Origin: a virus
DNA: 64,000 nucleotides
Direction: 5' to 3' (one strand)
IMG/VR virus record: IMGVR_UViG_3300045988_130366
Shown: positions 29,328-39,511 of the stretch, in pieces
Layout: each line of letters begins with the position of its first letter
Position numbering within the stretch: the first letter of the stretch is position 1
Position numbers and translations under genes: made by a program
Notes under the pieces: model-generated
The model's database searches: none
What the model saw: only the letters and a program-made list of their open reading frames with translations
Told to the model about the DNA's origin: nothing

Positions 29328-31121
29328 TTGAAATCAAATATGGATTATCAACTTAAAACGCCATTGCTCCCAATTAAAAATGAATATACAGTGGTAGAGC
29401 GGGTATTTGCAATACGAGGAGTAGACCCAAAAGATATTCCTCATTATCTTAATACAACTAAAGAAGATATTTTAGACCCTGGTTTAATTATGAATATAGA
29501 TGAAGGAGTAAGAATGTTGGCAAAACATATTAGCCAACAGGATAAGATTTATATTCAAGTAGATAGTGACTGTGATGGTTTCACATCTGCGGCGTTCCTT
29601 ATTAACTATTTAAACCGATTATTTCCAGGATATACTCAGACAAAAATTTCATATGGATTGCATTCTGGTAAACAACATGGACTTTATGAAGAGTTTATTT
29701 CAGATTTTATAAATGAAGATTATAAATTAATTATTGCGCCAGATTCGTCAAGCAATAATTATGAAGTACATAAAAAACTTAAAGAACTTGGAATTGATGT
29801 ATTGGTTATTGACCACCATGAAGCTGAAAAAATTTCAGAAGATGCATGTGTAATAAATAATCAATTATGTGATTATCCAACTAAGTCCTTATCTGGTGTA
29901 GGTATGGTTTATAAATTCTGTTCTTATTTTGATTCAATTATGGGTACAGATTGGGCAAGTTACTATCTTGATTTGGCAGCACTTGGAATCATTGCAGATA
30001 TGATGGATATTAGAGATTTTGAAACAAGAGAAATTATTAATCTTGGTTTAGCATCTGTTGAAAACCCATTCTTTAAAGAGATGGTAAAGGTACAAGATTA
30101 TTCCATTAGCCGAGCAGGAGGCTTATGTCCATTTGCAGTTAGCTTTTATATTGCGCCGCAGATAAATGGAACTATTCGTATGGGTTCTGCAAATGAGAAA
30201 CTTATGCTTTTTGAATCTATGTTAGACTTTAAAGCTTATGACCAAATTCCTTCTACTAAAAGAGGATGTAAAGGCCAGTTTGAAACTCGTGTAGAGCAGG
30301 CTTGCCGCAATTGCACAAATATTAAACGTAATCAGTCTAAAGCCATTGATGCAAGTCTTCAAACGATTGAAGGAATTATAAAGGATAAATCTCTTGAAGA
30401 AAATAAAATTATTGCGGTTAAGCTTGCTGCTGGAGCAATAAATAAAAATTTAACTGGACTTATTGCAAATCAATTAATGGCTAAATATAATCATCCATTC
30501 CTTATTCTTATGGAACACCCACAAGAGGATGGCAGTATTAGTTTAGAAGGTTCTGGTAGAAGTTATGAAACTTCTAATTTTAATGATTTAAGAACATTTA
30601 TTCGAGATAGCGGTTATGCCAGTCTTGCAGAAGGTCATCCTAATGCATTTGGTGCAGCTATTCCAGAAGATAAGTTTAGTGATTTTATTCAATATTCAAA
30701 TGAAGCTTTAAAAGAATGTTCATTTACACCATGTCAGAAAGTTGATTTTATCTGGGATGCAAATGACTTTAAAGCAAATGATATTATTGATTTAGCTGAA
30801 TTAAATACTATTTGGGGACAAGAGCTTGCGGAACCGATTGTTGTAATTAAAAATGTTAAAGTAACCAAAGATAATTTATCTTATATGGGAAAAGGCGGCA
30901 GATGTCCTTCATTTAAAATCACTTTGCCTAATGGAACAAGCTTAATTAAGTTTAGAATTACTGATGAAGAATTTGATTCATTACTTCCTACTAATGCTAC
31001 TGGTAGTAAAAATGTTACAGTTATAGGAACTTGTGCAATTAATGAGTGGAATGGTCGTATAACTCCTCAGATTAAAGTTAGTGATTATGAAATCACAGGA
31101 GAGACTAAATATTATTTTTGA
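29328..31121 (+). CDS. recJ: RecJ-like DHH-family exonuclease
   Basis: DHH motifs: DSDCDGFTS, APDSS, VIDHHE; DHHA1-like C-terminal half. Confidence 0.8.
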   Translation: MKSNMDYQLKTPLLPIKNEYTVVERVFAIRGVDPKDIPHYLNTTKEDILDPGLIMNIDEGVRMLAKHISQQDKIYIQVDSDCDGFTSAAFLINYLNRLFPGYTQTKISYGLHSGKQHGLYEEFISDFINEDYKLIIAPDSSSNNYEVHKKLKELGIDVLVIDHHEAEKISEDACVINNQLCDYPTKSLSGVGMVYKFCSYFDSIMGTDWASYYLDLAALGIIADMMDIRDFETREIINLGLASVENPFFKEMVKVQDYSISRAGGLCPFAVSFYIAPQINGTIRMGSANEKLMLFESMLDFKAYDQIPSTKRGCKGQFETRVEQACRNCTNIKRNQSKAIDASLQTIEGIIKDKSLEENKIIAVKLAAGAINKNLTGLIANQLMAKYNHPFLILMEHPQEDGSISLEGSGRSYETSNFNDLRTFIRDSGYASLAEGHPNAFGAAIPEDKFSDFIQYSNEALKECSFTPCQKVDFIWDANDFKANDIIDLAELNTIWGQELAEPIVVIKNVKVTKDNLSYMGKGGRCPSFKITLPNGTSLIKFRITDEEFDSLLPTNATGSKNVTVIGTCAINEWNGRITPQIKVSDYEITGETKYYF

Positions 31122-31322: not shown

Positions 31323-31616
31323 ATGATAAGAGAAGCTGAAGAATTAAAAAATAAATTAGATGTAACAGTAATCAATAGAGACCAATTAAATAAAATTTTA
31401 CTTGAAAGAATTAATTTTGCTTTTGATAGTTTATATTTTCGATATGCTATGGCTATCAAAGAGCTTGGTGAATATAAAGAAAGAGAAGCATTAAAAGAAG
31501 GTAGACATTTTTCCCGTAAAACTTGGGAAGATGGTCAGTGTATGCATTTTTATAACGTATTAGAGGAGATATTAGAAGCCCATGCAGAAGACCACCCACT
31601 TCGATCAAACAAATAA
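31323..31616 (+). CDS. hypothetical protein
   Basis: ORF after promoter. Confidence 0.4.
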   Translation: MIREAEELKNKLDVTVINRDQLNKILLERINFAFDSLYFRYAMAIKELGEYKEREALKEGRHFSRKTWEDGQCMHFYNVLEEILEAHAEDHPLRSNK

Positions 31617-31947
31617 TGACTCAATTAGAGTTTTTAAATTAACTAAAAGCGATATATTCTCAATTTCCATGAAAACATATATGAAAAGTTCATATTTATG
31701 GAATGGAAATTTTAAGATAATGGGATTTAAAAAAGAGCGAGTATGTTTATATTGGTGTTATCATAGGATTCCAACGCCGTTTAAACAGCAAATGATCAGA
31801 TTAATGTATATGAAAGAGAGTAATGAAATAAATGGTTAGATACGCGGAAAGAGAAAAAAGTTAGGACAAAACTAACGAAAGTATTATTTAAAAATTTTAA
31901 TAATATATAAGAAATAAAATATATTATTAAAAAGGAGAATTTATGAA

Positions 31948-32490
31948 ATGAAAGTAATTTGTACAGTGTGCGGAAAAGAATTTGAAGCACAGAAATCAAC
32001 TAAAAAATATTGCAGTAATGAATGTATGAATGCTGCAAGACGAAAAAAATATGCTGAAGCTAAAGCAGCTGGATTAGATCCTCATAATAAAGGGTTGCAA
32101 GAAAAAGAATGTCCGATATGTGGTAAAAAATTTATTCCTAAAAGTGCTGCAGCTAATCAAAGAATATGTTGTTATGATTGTATGCCAGAAGGCGTTCAAC
32201 TAACAAGAGGAGCTTTTTTAGCAAAAATAAAAGAGGCCAGAGGTGGAAAATGCATAAGATGTGGGTATAATAAATGTCTTAAAGCGCTTGAATTTCATCA
32301 TTTAGACCCGTCTCAGAAGGATTTTACTATTAGCAATGACCATTTTAAATTAAAAGAGGCTGTTGAAGAAAGTAAAAAATGTATTCTATTATGTTCTAAT
32401 TGCCATAAAGAATTCCATGCAGGACTTTGGTCTTTAGATGAGTTAAATTTAGAAGAAAAGGAGGAAGTAGAATCTTATGGAGTTAACTAA
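31948..32490 (+). CDS. HNH endonuclease (paralog of 408-974)
   Basis: CIRCGYNKC…EFHHLDPSQKDF…CSNCHKEFHAG nearly collinear with C-terminus of ORF 408-974. Confidence 0.8.
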   Translation: MKVICTVCGKEFEAQKSTKKYCSNECMNAARRKKYAEAKAAGLDPHNKGLQEKECPICGKKFIPKSAAANQRICCYDCMPEGVQLTRGAFLAKIKEARGGKCIRCGYNKCLKALEFHHLDPSQKDFTISNDHFKLKEAVEESKKCILLCSNCHKEFHAGLWSLDELNLEEKEEVESYGVN

Positions 32491-32572
32491 AAAACAACTC
32501 GAAGGTTTGAAAATTGCCGTAGCCAGATTTCACAGTAATGAAAAATATACTGTGATTGCTGGCTACGCCTAA
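32477..32572 (+). CDS. dda: Dda-like SF1 helicase, N-terminal 31 codons (frame A) ending at in-frame UAA
   Basis: MELTKKQLEGLKIAVARFHSNEKYTVIAGYA* aligns with T4 Dda LTEGQKNAFNIVMKAIKEKKHHVTINGPA. Confidence 0.6.
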   Translation: MELTKKQLEGLKIAVARFHSNEKYTVIAGYA

Positions 32573-33665
32573 GGTAGGTACTGGTAAGTCCACACTTGTG
32601 AAGTTCATCATCGAGGCCCTTGATGTTGATCCGAGTAAAGTGGCATATGCTACTTTTACCGGTAAGGCAGCAGAAGTTCTTCGTAAAAAGGGAAATAAGA
32701 ATGCTTGCACTTTACATAAATTACTTTATGAGCATATCCCAAGACCAGGTGGAGGTTTTTTTAGAAAACCAAAATCTACTATTGAATATAGCATTATTGT
32801 AGTGGATGAGATTTCAATGGTGCCAGTAGGCATGATGCAACAGCTTTTTAAACATAAAGTGTATGTTATTTGTTTAGGTGACCCATTCCAGATTCCTCCA
32901 ATAGAGAAAGATCAAGATAATCACTTACTTGATAACCCTCATATTTTCTTAGATGAAATTATGCGGCAGGCCGCAGATTCTGAAATTATTAGACTTAGCA
33001 TTGACATTCGAGAAATGAAACCTTTAGAGTTATTTAAAGGAAAAAATGTTCAAGTAATTGACCAAAAAGATTATGAAGCTGGTATGGTTCTTTGGGCTGA
33101 TCAGATTATTTGTGGAACCAATGCCGCAGTTGAAGAGATTAATGTTTATGCAAGAAATCTGTTGGGAAGAGGCCCGCTTCCAGAAGATGGAGATAAAATT
33201 CTTTGTAGACAAAATTATTGGGAAGATATTAGTGATGACCATAATGCCTTAGTTAATGGTACCATTGGTTATTTAAAAAACCCTAAAAATAGATTTATTT
33301 ATTTCCCATATTGGATTGGAACTTCTGTCCCATCAGTACAAGCCATTCAATGTGATATAGAGACTGATGAAGGAGATATTTATAAAGATTTATATCTGGA
33401 TAAAACTATGCTTACTCATGGAGCAAGATGTCTTGATAATAGAGATATTTATAAAATTGGTAAGCATCGTGAAAGAGTTGGAGATTTAGTTCCAAAATTT
33501 TTTACTTATGGATATGGAATTACTGGACATAAGGCTCAAGGTTCTGAATGGGATAATGTTTTAGTTCTTGAAGAGCCATTTCCAAGAGTAAGGTTGGAAC
33601 ATGCAAGATGGCTTTATACTGCAATAACCAGAGCATCTGAAAAAGTAATTGTAAGGAGAAAATAA
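32571..33665 (+). CDS. dda: Dda-like SF1 helicase, remainder (frame B, +1 relative to N-terminal piece)
   Basis: KVGTGKSTLVKFIIEAL (cf. T4 Dda AGTGKTTLTKFIIEAL), motif II VVDEISMV, later helicase motifs; requires +1 shift at GCC-U-AAG. Confidence 0.75.
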   Translation, partial: KVGTGKSTLVKFIIEALDVDPSKVAYATFTGKAAEVLRKKGNKNACTLHKLLYEHIPRPGGGFFRKPKSTIEYSIIVVDEISMVPVGMMQQLFKHKVYVICLGDPFQIPPIEKDQDNHLLDNPHIFLDEIMRQAADSEIIRLSIDIREMKPLELFKGKNVQVIDQKDYEAGMVLWADQIICGTNAAVEEINVYARNLLGRGPLPEDGDKILCRQNYWEDISDDHNALVNGTIGYLKNPKNRFIYFPYWIGTSVPSVQAIQCDIETDEGDIYKDLYLDKTMLTHGARCLDNRDIYKIGKHRERVGDLVPKFFTYGYGITGHKAQGSEWDNVLVLEEPFPRVRLEHARWLYTAITRASEKVIVRRK

Positions 33666-33666
33666 T

Positions 33667-34308
33667 ATGAATGTAGTTACAATAGATTTTGATATTATTA
33701 TGGAGCCAAGTATTAGTTTTTATAATAATATGGTGGATATTGAAGACCCAATGAAAGATTATGTAGATAAATTTTCATTTCTTACAAATATCCCCGCCAA
33801 TTTATATATTTATGATTATCTAACTCGTTATATCGTACGTGCGGCAAAGCAAAATCAAGAGATTTATTTTGTAAATAGTCATGATAAAGTGATTGATATT
33901 CTTAAAACGATTCCTCACGATGAGCAGATTGATTTATATAATATTGACTATCATCATGACTTAGGATATGATATGGAGTCTGCGGACTGGATGCGCCCAA
34001 TGTTTAAATATGATTTAAGTAATTGGGTCAAATATGCAAGAGATAAAAAAATGGTTGATACTTTTTATTGGATTCACAATGAAAATTCTGACCCTTATCC
34101 AAGCGAGGCCGCAAGATATGTTACAGAAGATTATATCTTAAAGGACTTTAATTTAGAAGATGACAAAAATGCTCCAGATGTTTTAATTATTTGTTCTTCT
34201 TTTGAATGGATTCCGCCTGTTTATCAGCCATTGTTTTATTCATGGAATACTATCTGTAGTGAAATCACAGGAAAAGAATATCCTTTTGACAGCATTGAAA
34301 AAATATGA
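33667..34308 (+). CDS. hypothetical protein
   Basis: ORF overlapping upstream stop. Confidence 0.45.
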   Translation: MNVVTIDFDIIMEPSISFYNNMVDIEDPMKDYVDKFSFLTNIPANLYIYDYLTRYIVRAAKQNQEIYFVNSHDKVIDILKTIPHDEQIDLYNIDYHHDLGYDMESADWMRPMFKYDLSNWVKYARDKKMVDTFYWIHNENSDPYPSEAARYVTEDYILKDFNLEDDKNAPDVLIICSSFEWIPPVYQPLFYSWNTICSEITGKEYPFDSIEKI

Positions 34309-34356
34309 TATAATATTTATATAATTGAGAATAGTATAGATAGAGGAAGATAATAA

Positions 34357-36881
34357 ATGAGCAAAAAGTGGTTTAATTGTCATAACCATACAGAGTATTC
34401 AAACTTACGTCTTTTGGATTCAACCAATCACCCAAAAGATTTAATCAATAAAGCAATCGAATTAGGACTTAGTGGTATCTGTATAACTGACCATGAGGCC
34501 CTTTGTGCGCACGTTGAAATAAATAAAATTGCAACAGAGTTAAGAGAAACAAATCCTGATTTTGTGATTGGATTAGGAAATGAGATTTATTTAACTGATA
34601 CAAGAAATCATGGTCAGAAATATTATCATTTTATTTTGATTGCTAAAGATGCAATCGGTCATAAAGCGTTAAGAGAGTTAAGTTCTACAGCTTGGTATTA
34701 TTCATATATGGATAGAGGTATGGAAAGAGTTCCAACTTTAAAAGATGAATTAACTGAGATTGTAAGACATTATAAAGGTCATTTAATTGCAACAAGTGCA
34801 TGTATTGGTGGAGAATTATCTTCATGGTCTTTATTATATGCAGAAGCATTAAAGGTAAATGACCAAAAGATGGCAATGGAGTTTCAGAAAAAGATTCAAG
34901 ATTTTATGAATTTTGTTCTTGATTTATTTGGAGATGATTTTTATATTGAATGTGCTCCATCTAATAAAGAAGATCAAATGACTGTAAATTCTCAGTTGTT
35001 TAAAATTGCAACTGCATATAATGTTAAAATGGTTGTTGGAACTGACTCTCATTATTTAACAAAAGAAGATAGAATGGTTCATAAAGCATATCTTAATTCA
35101 AAAGGTGGAGAGCGTGAAGTTGATGACTTTTATGAATTTGCCAGACTTATGGATAGCGATGAAGTGGAAGAATTATTATCTCCATGTTTTCCAGATGGAT
35201 ATGTAGATGTAATTTTTGAAAACACTTTAGATTTACAAAATAAAATTGAATATTATAGTCTTTTTCATAAGCAGGATATTCCATCTGTAGAAGTTAAAGA
35301 TTATCCAAAAGTAAGAGGATTTAAACAATATCCACATTTATCTGCAATGTTAATGGATGATGATATTCAGAATCGTTATTGGGTAAATGAATGTTTAAAT
35401 CAGCTTGAAAAACTTGAAAAAATTAATGATAGACGTTATCTTGATGAGCTTGAAGAAGAAGCACGAGTTAAAAGTATCATTAGTGAAAAACTTGAAACAA
35501 ATATGTTTCGTTATCCAAATACACTTCAGCATTATATTGATATGATTTGGGATTGCGGTTCAATGGTAGGTGCTGGTCGTGGTTCCAGTTGTGCCGCGCT
35601 TAATCATTACCTTATGGGAATTACTCAGTTGGATCCTATTGAATGGGATTTACCTTTCTTCCGTTATCTTAATGAAGAGAGAATTGAGCTTGGTGATATT
35701 GATATTGACATATGCCCGTCTAAACGTCCGGAAATTCTTCGTAAAATTAAAGAAGAGCGTGGAAAGATGTTCTATGATAATATCATGGAATGGGCAAAGA
35801 AAAATCTTGGATGTACTCTTGTAGCAACATTCGGTACAGAAGGAACCAAATCTGCAATTCAGACAGCTTGTAGAGGTTATAGAAGTGAGGATTATCCAGA
35901 AGGAATTGATGTTGATGAAGCTCAGTATATGAGTTCATTAATTCCAGAGGAAAGGGGTTTTTTATGGACAATTAAAGAAGTTGTTTATGGAAATCCAGAA
36001 AAAGGTCGTAAACCTGTTAAGACATTTGTAAATGAAGTAAATAAATATCCAGGTTTATTGGATATTATTGTAGCTATTGAAGGTCTTGTAAACCATAGAG
36101 GCTCTCATGCATCTGGTGTAATTTTATTTGGAGATGACCCATTTGAGCATAGTGCTTTTATGAAAACTCCAAAAGGTGAGATTACTACTCAGTTTGACTT
36201 ACATGATGCAGAGTATATGGGATTAACAAAATATGATTTTCTTGTAACTGAGGTTCAGGATAAGTTGGTTCAAACTATTCAATTACTCCAAGAGGATAAT
36301 GAAATTGAGCCAGAATTAAGTTTGCGGGAAGTCTATGATAAATATTTTCATCCTAATGTTTTACCTTTAAATGATCAAAAGATTTGGGATGCATTGGGTA
36401 AAGTATCTGTTATTAATACTTTCCAGTTTGATTCTCAGGTTGGTGCGCAGGTTGCAAAGAAATTAAAACCTCAGAATGTATTGGAAATGGCGGATGCGAA
36501 TGGTCTAATGAGACTTATGGGCGAAGATGGAGAAGAACGCCCAATGGATAAATATTATCGTTTTAAACAAAACATTCAGTTATGGTATGATGAAATGACA
36601 AAATTTGGTCTTACCAAAGAAGAGCAGAAAACTCTTGAACCTTACTTTAAGAGTTCTTATGGAGTTCCGCCTTCACAGGAACAGTTAATGAGAATGTTGA
36701 TGGATGATAAGATTTGTCACTTCAGTCTTGGAGAAGCAAATGCGGCTCGTAAGATTGTTGGTAAAAAGCAGATGAATAAAATTCCAGCTTTGCATGAAAA
36801 GGTATTGGCACAGGCGGCAAGTGAGAAGCTTGGCCAGTATGTATGGAAATGTGGAGTTGGCCCGCAGATGGGTTATTCATT
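34357..36881 (+). CDS. dnaE: DNA polymerase III alpha (DnaE-type), exon 1 (PHP, palm, fingers up to …QMGYSF)
   Basis: PHP motif CHNHTEYS…ITDHEAL, DnaE palm/fingers similarity, ends in conserved GYxF of the GYGFNKSH region; exact 5' splice site +/- few nt. Confidence 0.75.
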
Positions 36882-38115
36882 TAGCGTTGTGTAAATGGCG
36901 CTTACACACTTAACCACTTATCGGTGGGGTAATTAAAACATTAATATATTTGGCAAATATAGTTTTAATTGCTAACGAGGGTAAAATCTCGTGACAAATT
37001 TCTTTAATAGAGGTATAGTGTTTTTCATTTATACATGAGAACAATAGCCATGTATAAAGGAGAATATTTATGTATTATATTTATAAATTCACAAATAAAA
37101 CAAATGGTAAGATTTATATTGGGCAAACTAATAATATTCAAAAACGAAAAAATGGTCATAGAAGTGATTCTTTTAATGAAAAAAGTTCTGGATATAATTT
37201 ACCATTTCATTCTGCAATAAGAAAATATGGTTGGGATAATTTTAATTTTGATATTCTTGAAGAAATATCAGATGGAGAGTCTCAAGATTATATTGATGAA
37301 AGAGAAATTTTTTTCATTCAATATTATCATTCTTTAAAAGACGAAAATGGATATAATATTTCTATTGGGGGTCAAGGATATAAAAGACAACCCTTAACTT
37401 ATGAAGAAAGATTGAATCTATCTAAGTTATTTAAAAAAGAAGAGATTATTGATATTCAAAATCGTTTAATGAATGATGAAGAATATGATGATATTGAAAA
37501 AATTTATTATCCTAAATTAAAACGAACATTTTTAGTCAATATAAATACTGGAACAAATTATTTTAATGAAAAATTTGATTATCCTTTAAAGAAAAATTCC
37601 AGAAGTCGTTTTTCTCAAAAAGAAATTCGAGAAATAAAAGATAGAATTAAAAGTGGAGAGAAATATAAATCCATTCAAGAAGATTTTAATATTAAATCCG
37701 CAGGATTTTTATCTATGATAAATACTGGAAAATATTTTTATAGTAATCAAGATACATATCCACTTTGTGATAAAGGAAGTAATAAAGCTAAAAATGAAGT
37801 TTGGGTTCAAGGTATTATAAAAGATATCTTAGAAACAGAATTATCATTAAAAGATATTTCTAAAAAATGGAATAAAAGTTACGCTACAGTTAAAAATATT
37901 AACTCTGGTCGTTCTCATAAAAAAGAAAAATATAAATACCCTCTTAGAGATAATAAATAAATCTATTAAAAGAAAAATGTTGTATCGACTATCCTGGGTT
38001 AGACCGGGAGTACTGGAACTATTGATACGTTCTGGGAAATAGTGTGCGGATAAGGGGTATGCCAAAACCTCACTACAACATCCGTAAAAAATAGTCAGTA
38101 ATTTAAAAAATTATG
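36882..38115 (+). mobile_element. group I intron in dnaE carrying GIY-YIG homing endonuclease ORF
   Basis: Shared core TGTATCGACTATCC…CTATTGATACG…AATAGTCAGTAATTT…TTATG omega-G; exon 2 resumes (F)IHALAYSFIGVQTLY matching DnaE [13 protein letters not shown]. Confidence 0.7.
37070..37960 (+). CDS. GIY-YIG homing endonuclease (intron-encoded)
   Basis: YIYKFTNKTNGKIYIGQTNNIQKRKNGH motif. Confidence 0.8.
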   Translation: MYYIYKFTNKTNGKIYIGQTNNIQKRKNGHRSDSFNEKSSGYNLPFHSAIRKYGWDNFNFDILEEISDGESQDYIDEREIFFIQYYHSLKDENGYNISIGGQGYKRQPLTYEERLNLSKLFKKEEIIDIQNRLMNDEEYDDIEKIYYPKLKRTFLVNINTGTNYFNEKFDYPLKKNSRSRFSQKEIREIKDRIKSGEKYKSIQEDFNIKSAGFLSMINTGKYFYSNQDTYPLCDKGSNKAKNEVWVQGIIKDILETELSLKDISKKWNKSYATVKNINSGRSHKKEKYKYPLRDNK

Positions 38116-39511
38116 TATACACGCTTTAGCTTATAGTTTCATTGGTGTTCAAACATTATATATTGCAACAAATTGGAATCCTATTTATTGGGATTGTGCA
38201 TGTTTAATTGTAAACAGTGGTTCACTTGAAGATAATAGTGAGTTAGAGATTGATGAGGATAATGAATCTGAATCTATTTCCGTGAAGAAAACAGCTTCAA
38301 CTGATTATGGAAAAATCGCAAAGGCGATGGGTGAAATTATATCTGCGGGAATTAAAATGAGCCTTGTTGATATAAATAATTCAGATTATGGATTTAAACC
38401 TGATGCTAAAAATAATCAGATTCTTTATGGAATGAAAGGTTTATTGAATGTCAGTGATGCGGTAATTGATGATATTATCAAAAATAGACCTTATATTTCA
38501 CCTAAAGACTTTTTATTAAAAGTGCGTCCAAATAAACAGGCAATGATTTCACTTATTAAAGGTGGAGCATTTGATACAATGATTGACCGCAAGATTTGTA
38601 TGGGTTGGTATATTTGGGAAACTTGTGATAAGAAGAAACGAATTACTTTACAAAACATGGGAGGTTTGATTAAATATAATCTTCTTCCAGAAAAAAATGA
38701 ACAACAGATTATGGCGAGAAGAGTTTATGAATTTAATCGTTATCTAAAATCTGTTTGTAAGATTAAAGGTGATACAACTAATTATCATATAGATGATAGA
38801 GCAATGAATTTTTTGATTGAAATGGAACATGATGATTTATTAGAGGGTTATTCTTTAAATATGAAAGCATGGGACAAAGTATATCAGAAATGGATGGATG
38901 TATTCAGAGAGTGGATTGCGGAAGAAAAAGAACAGATTCTTCAGAACTTAAATGAAAAAATCTTTAAGGATGATTGGGATAAATATGCTCAAGGAACTTT
39001 ATCAGCTTGGGAAATGCAGGCATTATGTTTCTATTACCATGAACATGAATTATCTCATGTTGATACTCAAAGATATGGTTTTGTTGATTTTGATAAGCTG
39101 CCGCAAGAACCTATTGTAGAAAGAACATTTACAAAAGGTGCAAAGCAAATTAATATATTCAAATTGAATAAAATTTGCGGAACTTGTATTGCTAAAAATA
39201 AAACTAAAAGTACAGTAACTATATTGACAACTTCTGGAGTAGTTAATGTTAAATTTAGAAAAGAATATTTCTCATTATTTGATAAGCAGATTTCTGAAAA
39301 ACAAGAAGATGGAACTAAAAAAGTTCGAGAAAAATCTTGGTTCAATCGAGGAAATATGATTATAGTAATGGGCATTAGGTCAGGGGATGATTTCATTTCT
39401 AAGAAATATGCTTCTTCTAATGGACATCAATTATATAAGATTGATAAAATTAATGAAGATGGAAGTTTGGAAATTAGAAGTGATAGATACCAAGGAGAAG
39501 ATGTTTTTTAA
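38116..39511 (+). CDS. dnaE: DNA polymerase III alpha (DnaE-type), exon 2 (C-terminal: HhH, beta-binding region, OB fold)
   Basis: …IHALAYSFIGVQTLYIA… then DINNSDYGFKP / GMKGL (cf. DnaE DINRSD…GLGAIKG). Confidence 0.7.

Follow-up and report, generated by a model that had tools for sequence, protein, structure and literature searches.

A coding gap in the Walker A motif of a phage helicase gene

The helicase gene in a 64,000-nt stretch of viral DNA (IMG/VR record IMGVR_UViG_3300045988_130366; this whole stretch is referred to as the window) is interrupted within the codons for its Walker A motif by 7 nt that open with a stop codon. This gap is probably crossed by a programmed 7-nt ribosomal hop that is part of an HNH homing cassette. 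Gaps at the same position in other phages appear, if with a little less assurance, to form a large natural family of 5- to 10-nt programmed hops, in which the gap would be the self-immunity scar of an HNH cassette aimed at the Walker A sequence of gut and rumen phage helicases; they would then represent the first natural "stop-hop" system and the second independent origin of an endonuclease combined with bypassing. The open reading frames (ORFs) and codons concerned are as follows.

32477 to 32569, plus strand: helicase ORF1, codons 1 to 31 (MELTKKQLEGLKIAVARFHSNEKYTVIAGYA), aligning with the conserved N terminus and β1 strand of intact homologues
32567 to 32569, plus strand: proposed take-off codon GCC (Ala31)
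32570 to 32576, plus strand: 7-nt coding gap UAAGGUA, consisting of stop codon UAA (32570 to 32572), spacer G, and proposed landing triplet GUA (32574 to 32576), absent from every intact homologue
32577 to 33665, plus strand: helicase ORF2, beginning with the resume codon GGU (Gly32), reading GTGKST…, and ending with the stop codon TAA (33663 to 33665)

ORF1 opens with ATG at 32477 and encodes 31 amino acids that end in …VIAGYA before the UAA at 32570 to 32572, and the +1 frame carries the remainder of the helicase, which reads …KVGTGKSTLVKFIIEAL… and ends at 33665. These coordinates and reading frames agree with those of a preliminary description of this DNA. A protein search returned thousands of full-length homologues, the best of which (P0001, 393 amino acids, standing for 677 member sequences) was 98% identical. 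Every aligned intact homologue (14 aligned homologues and 57 intact loci) reads …AGYA-GTGKS… across this site. ORF1 ends at A31 and ORF2 starts at G32 of the family alignment, and the heptamer TAAGGTA, which sits between GCC (Ala31) and GGT (Gly32) in the Walker A motif, matches nothing in the homologues. When the gap was removed, the joined protein matched Pfam families AAA_30, AAA_19, and UvrD_C_2, PHROG 325 ("Dda-like helicase"; E = 3e-88), and RecD2 and Dda in the PDB, and its P-loop became GYAGTGKS, which conforms to the Walker A pattern GxxGxGK[ST] and has a counterpart in the GYAGTGKT of PDB homologue 9kwf. Judged by these matches, the joined product is a Dda/RecD-like SF1B helicase.

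The preliminary description had presented the break as a recoding candidate at a stop-adjacent codon and as a lesion of 1 nt. The first part holds; the second does not, as the alignment with homologues shows 7 extra nucleotides. Deletion of a single T, as considered in that description, would produce AKVGTGKS, containing K and V residues that no family member has. Megablast of the region gave no match among GenBank phages, and the nearest isolates by protein were Enterococcus, Bacillus AR9/PBS1, and Staphylococcus jumbo phages (<40% identical), in which no annotated precedent was readable.

Recurrence and diversity of gaps at the same site

A search with a degenerate junction pattern found four viral contigs with the identical TAAGGTA; these were 94 to 98% identical to the window, with synonymous differences downstream. 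The insert is not a sequencing error, because the same insert recurs in independent gut phage contigs that differ at synonymous sites, and on this evidence it is a real, inherited feature. Neither an assembly or sequencing error nor reinitiation at TTG 32556, which would yield an N-terminally truncated helicase, is a credible account of the break. A single contig could not have ruled out an error; the identical insert in independent assemblies, amounting to at least nine further contigs that are 94 to 98% identical to the window and differ at synonymous sites, refutes the sequencing indel raised in the preliminary description. The TTG that the same description considered as a restart is present in the downstream frame, but it is neither conserved nor accompanied by a Shine-Dalgarno (SD)-like sequence; among 96 insert alleles, 43 offer no possible start (ATG, GTG, or TTG) in that frame before the resume codon. 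The product of such reinitiation, MLATPKVGTGKS…, would lose invariant N-terminal residues and the β1 strand. Reinitiation at GTG 32598 was also considered and rejected; close relatives have GTA there, and the codon follows the GKS motif.

A relaxed pattern recovered TAAAGCT and TAAAACT at the same site in helicases that were only 46 to 47% identical to that of the window, and a further relaxed DNA pattern recovered 5-nt and 8-nt inserts. A sample of 80 viral loci that was seeded by protein similarity, and so was independent of the DNA motif, also contained in-frame inserts of 6 nt (for example, TAAGCA and TAGGTA). Gaps at this position were present in 25 viral contigs, 74 metagenome contigs (one scan; human gut, rumen, and other sources), and 6 contigs from metagenome-assembled genomes (MAGs). 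Overall, 45 distinct gap variants were found in more than 100 phage, metagenome, and MAG contigs, distributed as follows.

Gap length: 5 nt, 5 variants; 6 nt, 8 variants; 7 nt, 14 variants; 8 nt, 17 variants; 10 nt, 1 variant
First three nucleotides: TAA, 36 variants; TGA, 7 variants; TAG, 2 variants
Last three nucleotides: GCN, 28 variants; GTN, 9 variants; ACN, 7 variants; TCT, 1 variant

A stop codon thus opens all 45 variants, and the last triplet of 44 of them (GCN, GTN, or ACN) either is cognate to an alanine codon or differs from one by a single transition. The cognate landing triplets were GCA (12), GCU (9), GCG (6), and GCC (1), and the take-off codon was always GCC or GCU. All four bases occurred as the spacer nucleotide of 7-nt gaps. 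The lengths of 5, 6, 7, 8, and 10 nt span all three frame relationships, and near-identical alleles differ in frame (7 nt in the window versus 8 nt in L019; 5 nt in L013 versus 6 nt in L163). One frameshift cannot explain all alleles, because gap lengths fall in all three frames. Skipping the whole gap yields AGYAGTGKS for every allele, and only removal of the whole gap gives one consistent product.

Recoding by a different mechanism for each gap length is an unlikely explanation of this distribution. The window allele would be read by a +1 shift at GCC-UAA-G to give AGYA-KV-GTGKS, alleles with 5- and 8-nt gaps by −1 or +2 shifts, and alleles with 6-nt gaps by readthrough, so that the P-loop would gain 1 to 3 residues. 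The loose PROSITE P-loop pattern [AG]x4GK[ST] accommodates both the resulting AKVGTGKS of the window and the AK[A/T]GTGKS of L006 and L007, the residue encoded just before GGN would be Ala, Val, or Thr, resembling the native Ala, and a stop codon in the A site is a classic stimulator of +1 shifting, as in prfB. This explanation nevertheless needs three or four mechanisms at one homologous site with one shared hairpin, and different frames in near-identical alleles. The 5-nt class would produce YATGTGKS, which fails the Walker A pattern, and extra P-loop residues occur in none of the 14 aligned homologues and 57 intact loci. For a +1 shift in particular, re-pairing from GCC to CCU would be poor and leave a C·C clash in the first position, nothing SD-like is present in the upstream sequence (GCUGGCUAC), where prfB has such an element 3 nt upstream, and the variable spacer of the 7-nt gaps also speaks against it. 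The programmed +1 frameshift suggested in the preliminary description therefore fails as a general mechanism, since 5-, 6-, 8-, and 10-nt inserts need other frames; a 7-nt bypass fits better, and a +1 shift may still operate in the window allele alone, where it would give the junction peptide YTVIAGYAK followed by VGTGK.

Insert-bearing loci were also present on contigs of 23 to 175 kb (L182 to L187) that had been binned into MAGs from rumen and gut samples, labeled Mollicutes, Anaeroplasmatales, Clostridia, Bacilli, Clostridium sp., and Endomicrobiaceae. These contigs are probably phage, and the labels are weak hints of hosts. In-frame TAG codons were found at conserved helicase positions in several lineages, including codon 7 (invariant Gln7) in L008, L009, and L013, the codon aligned to E374 in L006 and L007, and others in L100, L081, and further loci, which indicates TAG-to-Gln recoding in these lineages. 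In this small set, TAA or TGA opens the gaps of the TAG-containing lineages, and the helicases of L096 and L105, the two with gaps that open with TAG, contain no further in-frame TAG.

An mRNA hairpin and codon constraints accompany the gap

The codons preceding the gap were examined for RNA structure.

32518 to 32567, plus strand: two-part mRNA hairpin, the 3′ end of which reaches the first base of the take-off codon

In the outer stem (9 bp), CGUAGCCAG (32518 to 32526) pairs with CUGGCUACG (32559 to 32567), and in the inner stem (8 to 10 bp), 32530 to 32539 pair with 32545 to 32555. The 96-nt fold of the window had a minimum free energy of −33.1 kcal/mol (z = −4.2). In the protein-similarity sample, codons 12 to 31 folded with −21.9 ± 2.2 kcal/mol in insert alleles and −7.0 ± 3.4 kcal/mol in intact alleles, with no overlap (Mann-Whitney test, P = 7e-7); the full set of alleles gave the same picture. 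Compared to synonymous recodings of the same peptide, insert alleles had z scores of −3.1 to −6.4 (window, −6.4), whereas the mean for intact alleles was 0.2. A hairpin at the take-off codon was present in all insert alleles tested (27 in a mixed set and 10 in the unbiased sample) and was lacking in intact alleles. The closing pair of the outer stem covaried (G-C, 59; G-U, 8; A-U, 7), with A at column 10 accompanied by U at column 57 in 7 of 7 cases. The sequences of the inner stems varied between alleles and clades while pairing was kept. RNAalifold recovered only the outer stem as a consensus because the inner stems sit in different registers, and the hairpin was assessed by per-sequence folds and recoding controls instead.

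Codon usage upstream of the gap was also constrained in insert alleles.

Codon 31, GCC or GCT (unbiased protein-seeded sample): insert alleles, 11/11; intact alleles, 16/52; P = 2e-5
Codon 29, GGC (unbiased protein-seeded sample): insert alleles, 11/11; intact alleles, 8/52; P = 1e-7
Codon 16, GCC or GCT (Ala): insert alleles, 11/11; intact alleles, 2/52, plus one GCA, with mostly Glu, Asp, or Gln in intact alleles

Codons 29 to 31 were GGC-TAY-GCY in all insert alleles of the protein-similarity sample; the DNA-pattern scans required this sequence, so those scans are no test of these codons. Codons 16, 29, and 31 fall in the arms of the hairpin. No 3′ stimulatory structure was evident, as the 30 to 60 nt after the gap folded no better in insert than in intact alleles, and the examples that were looked at had no insert-specific peptide motif except A16, which is tied to the hairpin. 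Three intact alleles (L062, L093, and L048) have Ala at codon 16 and partly complementary arms (ATAGCC … GGTTAT in L062); these could be precursors of insert alleles or revertants after loss of the gap.

Removal of the 5 to 10 nt before translation, either by hairpin-guided cutting and joining of the RNA or by frequent deletion at the DNA level, is very improbable. A conserved hairpin does directly abut the gap, and loss of the whole gap is what restores the protein, but removal before translation leaves the leading stop codon, the Ala-like final triplet, and the GCY bias at take-off unexplained. An E-value scan of 31500 to 38500 against Rfam gave no match to an RNA family or intron, and there are no flanking repeats longer than 2 to 3 nt that would support deletion by slippage. 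We know of no micro-excision system of this kind.

The gap lies at the end of a probable mobile cassette with an HNH endonuclease gene

An endonuclease gene was predicted immediately upstream of the helicase gene, within a segment that differs from sister phages.

31948 to 32490, plus strand: HNH homing-type endonuclease gene (180 amino acids; Pfam HNH_2, zinc finger motifs), overlapping the helicase start codon
31836 to 32576, plus strand: mobile cassette composed of the HNH gene, replaced and recoded helicase codons 1 to 31, and the 7-nt gap

The HNH protein matched PHROG 2255 ("HNH endonuclease"; E = 2e-25) and otherwise only generic HNH families. Sister phages with intact helicase genes (L005, L028 to L031, and L036) lack window positions 31836 to 32476, and ATGG is repeated at both cassette junctions. 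Identity to these intact sisters was 97% to the left of the cassette (BLAST), 77 to 81% in codons 1 to 31, and 90 to 98% to the right, immediately after the gap, and the end of the mosaic tract coincides exactly with the gap. Genes for homologues of the HNH protein (56 to 99% amino acid identity) immediately preceded the helicase gene in 15 of 29 and 45 of 86 insert contigs and in none of 57 intact contigs; the association between HNH and insert (15/29 versus 0/57) was significant (Fisher's exact test, P = 3.6e-9, uncorrected for relatedness). Strict coupling was considered and rejected: HNH genes were found only beside inserts, but about half of the insert alleles lack one. Sampled upstream ORFs of insert alleles without HNH genes were not endonuclease-like as judged by eye.

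Presence and absence of the gene together with a diverged tract is the pattern of intronless homing, with a putative co-conversion tract ending at the probable target. The gap would belong to the mobile cassette along with the HNH gene and the rewritten first 31 codons. The probable target of the HNH endonuclease is the helicase allele without a gap, cut within or close to the Walker A codons; the gap would shield the carrier genome from cleavage, and the hop would keep the helicase functional.

The helicase appears to remain in use

ORF2 was full length in 73 of 74 unique complete insert alleles. The sole exception (L126; contig JAEEGI010295960.1, 2,003 nt) turns into unrelated sequence after …LLLSH, near the end of the contig, whereas L153 and L167 carry this allele in intact form; L126 is either a chimeric assembly end or carries another element inserted just before the GDP motif. 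Ratios of nonsynonymous to synonymous substitution rates (dN/dS) between insert-bearing relatives were 0.02 to 0.08 at dS values of 0.1 to 0.6. Between carriers, ORF1 had dS values of ~0 to 0.1, and ORF2 had values of ~0.5.

These observations bear on the proposal that the cassette is selfish, homes, and disrupts a dispensable Dda-like helicase, with the gap not read through. Such a tolerated knockout is quite unlikely. T4 dda is nonessential, the cassette looks recently mobile, as ORF1 is far less diverged than ORF2 between carriers, and the HNH gene occurs only together with inserts. Set against these points are the full-length ORF2 in 73 of 74 alleles, with an exception attributable to a contig-end artifact, the persistence of gap, hairpin, and both ORFs in the roughly half of insert alleles from which the HNH gene has been lost, the 45 diverged variants that retain a leading stop codon, a length of 5 to 10 nt, and an Ala-like last triplet, and a hairpin held at synonymous sites (z = −3 to −6). 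A tolerated knockout is disfavored because a dead gene would conserve none of these features. Recent pseudogenization, also raised in the preliminary description, is unlikely in view of the full-length downstream ORFs and the conserved signals in the insert. The stronger argument that the helicase is in use would be the design rules kept by the 45 gap variants and the features kept by alleles without HNH genes, rather than dN/dS.

Proposed mechanism of the hop

In the proposed hop, peptidyl-tRNA-Ala would sit on GCC (32567 to 32569) with UAA in the A site. The peptidyl-tRNA would unpair, the mRNA would slip by 7 nt, and the tRNA would re-pair with the near-cognate GUA (32574 to 32576), after which decoding would restart at GGU (32577) to give the canonical …AGYAGTGKS… helicase. 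The predicted tryptic junction peptide of this product is YTVIAGYAGTGK. Bypassing would explain the leading stop codon as the source of a slow A site and the Ala-like last triplet as the site at which peptidyl-tRNA-Ala re-pairs.

The slip is probably driven by the hairpin abutting the take-off codon. While GCC occupies the P site, re-formation near the mRNA exit would be possible for the inner stem only, whose 3′ end lies 12 nt upstream; closure of the outer stem would then draw a few nucleotides out of the ribosome. A tRNA-Ala with a UGC anticodon that leaves a weakly read GCC or GCU for a better codon would suit the asymmetry between take-off and landing triplets; no tRNA genes were found in the window. 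The gap and resume codon together (32570 to 32579) read UAAGGUAGGU, a near-perfect SD sequence (UAAGGAGGU) plus one U, and many 7- and 8-nt gaps have a purine-rich or GG-rich stretch after the stop codon, which the 5-nt class (UAACU) does not. A role of this SD-like sequence in landing is possible.

Several points weigh against the proposed hop and its generality. The landing triplet of the window is GUA rather than a cognate GCN and requires a G·U pair at the middle position, and the P-loops that a +1 shift would create in the window, L006, and L007 fit the loose PROSITE pattern. Low dN/dS values could partly stem from recent spread of the cassette into already diverged helicase genes, as the much smaller divergence of ORF1 than of ORF2 between carriers may indicate, which would weaken the argument from dN/dS; the phages might also tolerate losing the helicase, as T4 Dda is nonessential. 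Two of the DNA-pattern searches demanded parts of the motif (GCTGGCTACGC, or TAGCC…GGCTAYGCY), leaving the protein-based sample (L028 to L107) as the only unbiased one for hairpin and codon statistics, and a single large metagenome supplied many of the contigs, which lack phylogenetic independence. The hop, the driving role of the hairpin, the tRNA involved, and the HNH target are moreover all deduced from sequence.

Comparison with known bypassing and recoding systems

T4 gene 60, together with its topoisomerase gene homologues, is essentially the only case of efficient programmed bypassing that has been studied well. Bonocora et al. reportedly described the gene 60 bypass in 2011 together with a cassette for the HNH homing endonuclease MobA. 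The helicase system would work like gene 60 bypassing, which it resembles in layout. In both, a noncoding insert interrupts a conserved segment of a replication gene, a stop codon directly follows the take-off codon, the landing triplet is identical or close to the take-off codon, an HNH gene lies immediately upstream and forms one mobile unit with the insert, and some relatives lack the endonuclease and retain the bypass (here, the gap). In the MobA/gene 60 case, the insert blocks self-cleavage, and relatives have lost the nuclease and kept the bypass (Manning & Atkins, bioRxiv 10.1101/2022.08.31.505936).

The systems differ in other respects. The target here is the Walker A motif of an SF1B Dda/RecD-like helicase, whereas in T4 it is the Toprim domain of topoisomerase II, and the gene here is not split into two subunits. 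The gap is 5 to 10 nt rather than ~50 nt and has no room for an A-site take-off stem-loop or an internal SD sequence at 6 nt; an SD-like sequence is present in the window (UAAGGUAGGU), and the 5-nt class has nothing comparable. The tRNA would be tRNA-Ala (GCY) rather than tRNA-Gly (GGA), and re-pairing of the same tRNA at landing would be cognate in 28 of 45 variants (GCN), with GTN or ACN in 16 and only a near-cognate GUA in the window. The 5′ hairpin abuts the take-off codon here and lies 9 nt upstream in T4, and no nascent-peptide signal of the KKYK type is evident. Pairing of the exiting mRNA has been proposed as the forward driver of gene 60 bypassing (bioRxiv 10.1101/2024.12.09.627546). 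The geometry of the helicase hairpin fits this model by analogy.

In prfB (RF2), as here, a stop codon occupies the A site, and the ORFs of the window likewise stand in a +1 relationship; in contrast to prfB, the site has neither a slippery codon of the CUU-U type nor an SD sequence 3 nt upstream, other frames are required at homologous sites, and the +1 product would gain residues absent from the family. A short coding gap has also been proposed in a phage gene in connection with the rare UUA codon of Streptomyces; that case resembles the present one as a short phage gap and differs in that few examples exist, no hairpin has been reported, and a homing endonuclease is not linked to it. Stop-hops and tRNA hopping in Escherichia coli are said to have been described by Weiss et al. 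in 1987 and O'Connor et al. in 1989. Synthetic stop-hops have been constructed in E. coli, and natural short stop-hops were expected, with none known, in a 2016 review (PMC5009743). They share with the helicase gaps a short hop over a stop codon between matched or nearly matched codons, and the 6-nt class (GCC-UAA-GCA) has exactly their layout; those hops are low-efficiency events in artificial constructs, whereas the gaps here are natural, occur in more than 100 contigs and at several lengths, and have a dedicated hairpin. The mitochondrial byp elements of Magnusiomyces capitatus, as the work of Lang et al. (2014) is represented in PMC5009743, are 27 to 55 nt long, occur in many genes, and involve an unused A-site codon; compared with that account, the helicase gaps lie at one fixed site in one phage gene and have a stop codon and an upstream hairpin. 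A full-text literature search of incomplete coverage found no description of the present system.

If the hop takes place as proposed, it would represent a second, independent bypass system, much simpler than gene 60. With dozens of naturally occurring variants that differ in hairpin, landing triplet, stop codon, and gap length, it would allow direct tests of what exit-side mRNA pairing and codon-anticodon re-pairing contribute, and homing endonucleases would again be seen to be able to drive the evolution of recoding signals. Standard gene callers would then be splitting or truncating this helicase in many gut and rumen phage genomes.

Other endonuclease ORFs in the replication module

The DNA polymerase III alpha gene downstream of the helicase also seems split (34357 to 39511). 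Its N-terminal part (34357 to 36894) contains PHP, DNA_pol3_alpha, and finger domains, according to precomputed matches on the near-identical gene of L005, and its C-terminal part (38282 to 39511) contains HHH_6. A GIY-YIG (SegE-like) endonuclease ORF (37070 to 37960) lies between the two parts, and no group I intron was found by Rfam within 31500 to 38500. In one sister phage (L004, positions 436 to 1512, corresponding to window positions 29989/29992), ~1.08 kb of extra sequence lies inside a RecJ-like DHH gene. This segment encodes a 253-amino-acid ORF with a GIY-YIG-like motif (YIGLTNDLQRRMYEH) and is another putative endonuclease insertion polymorphism in the replication module.

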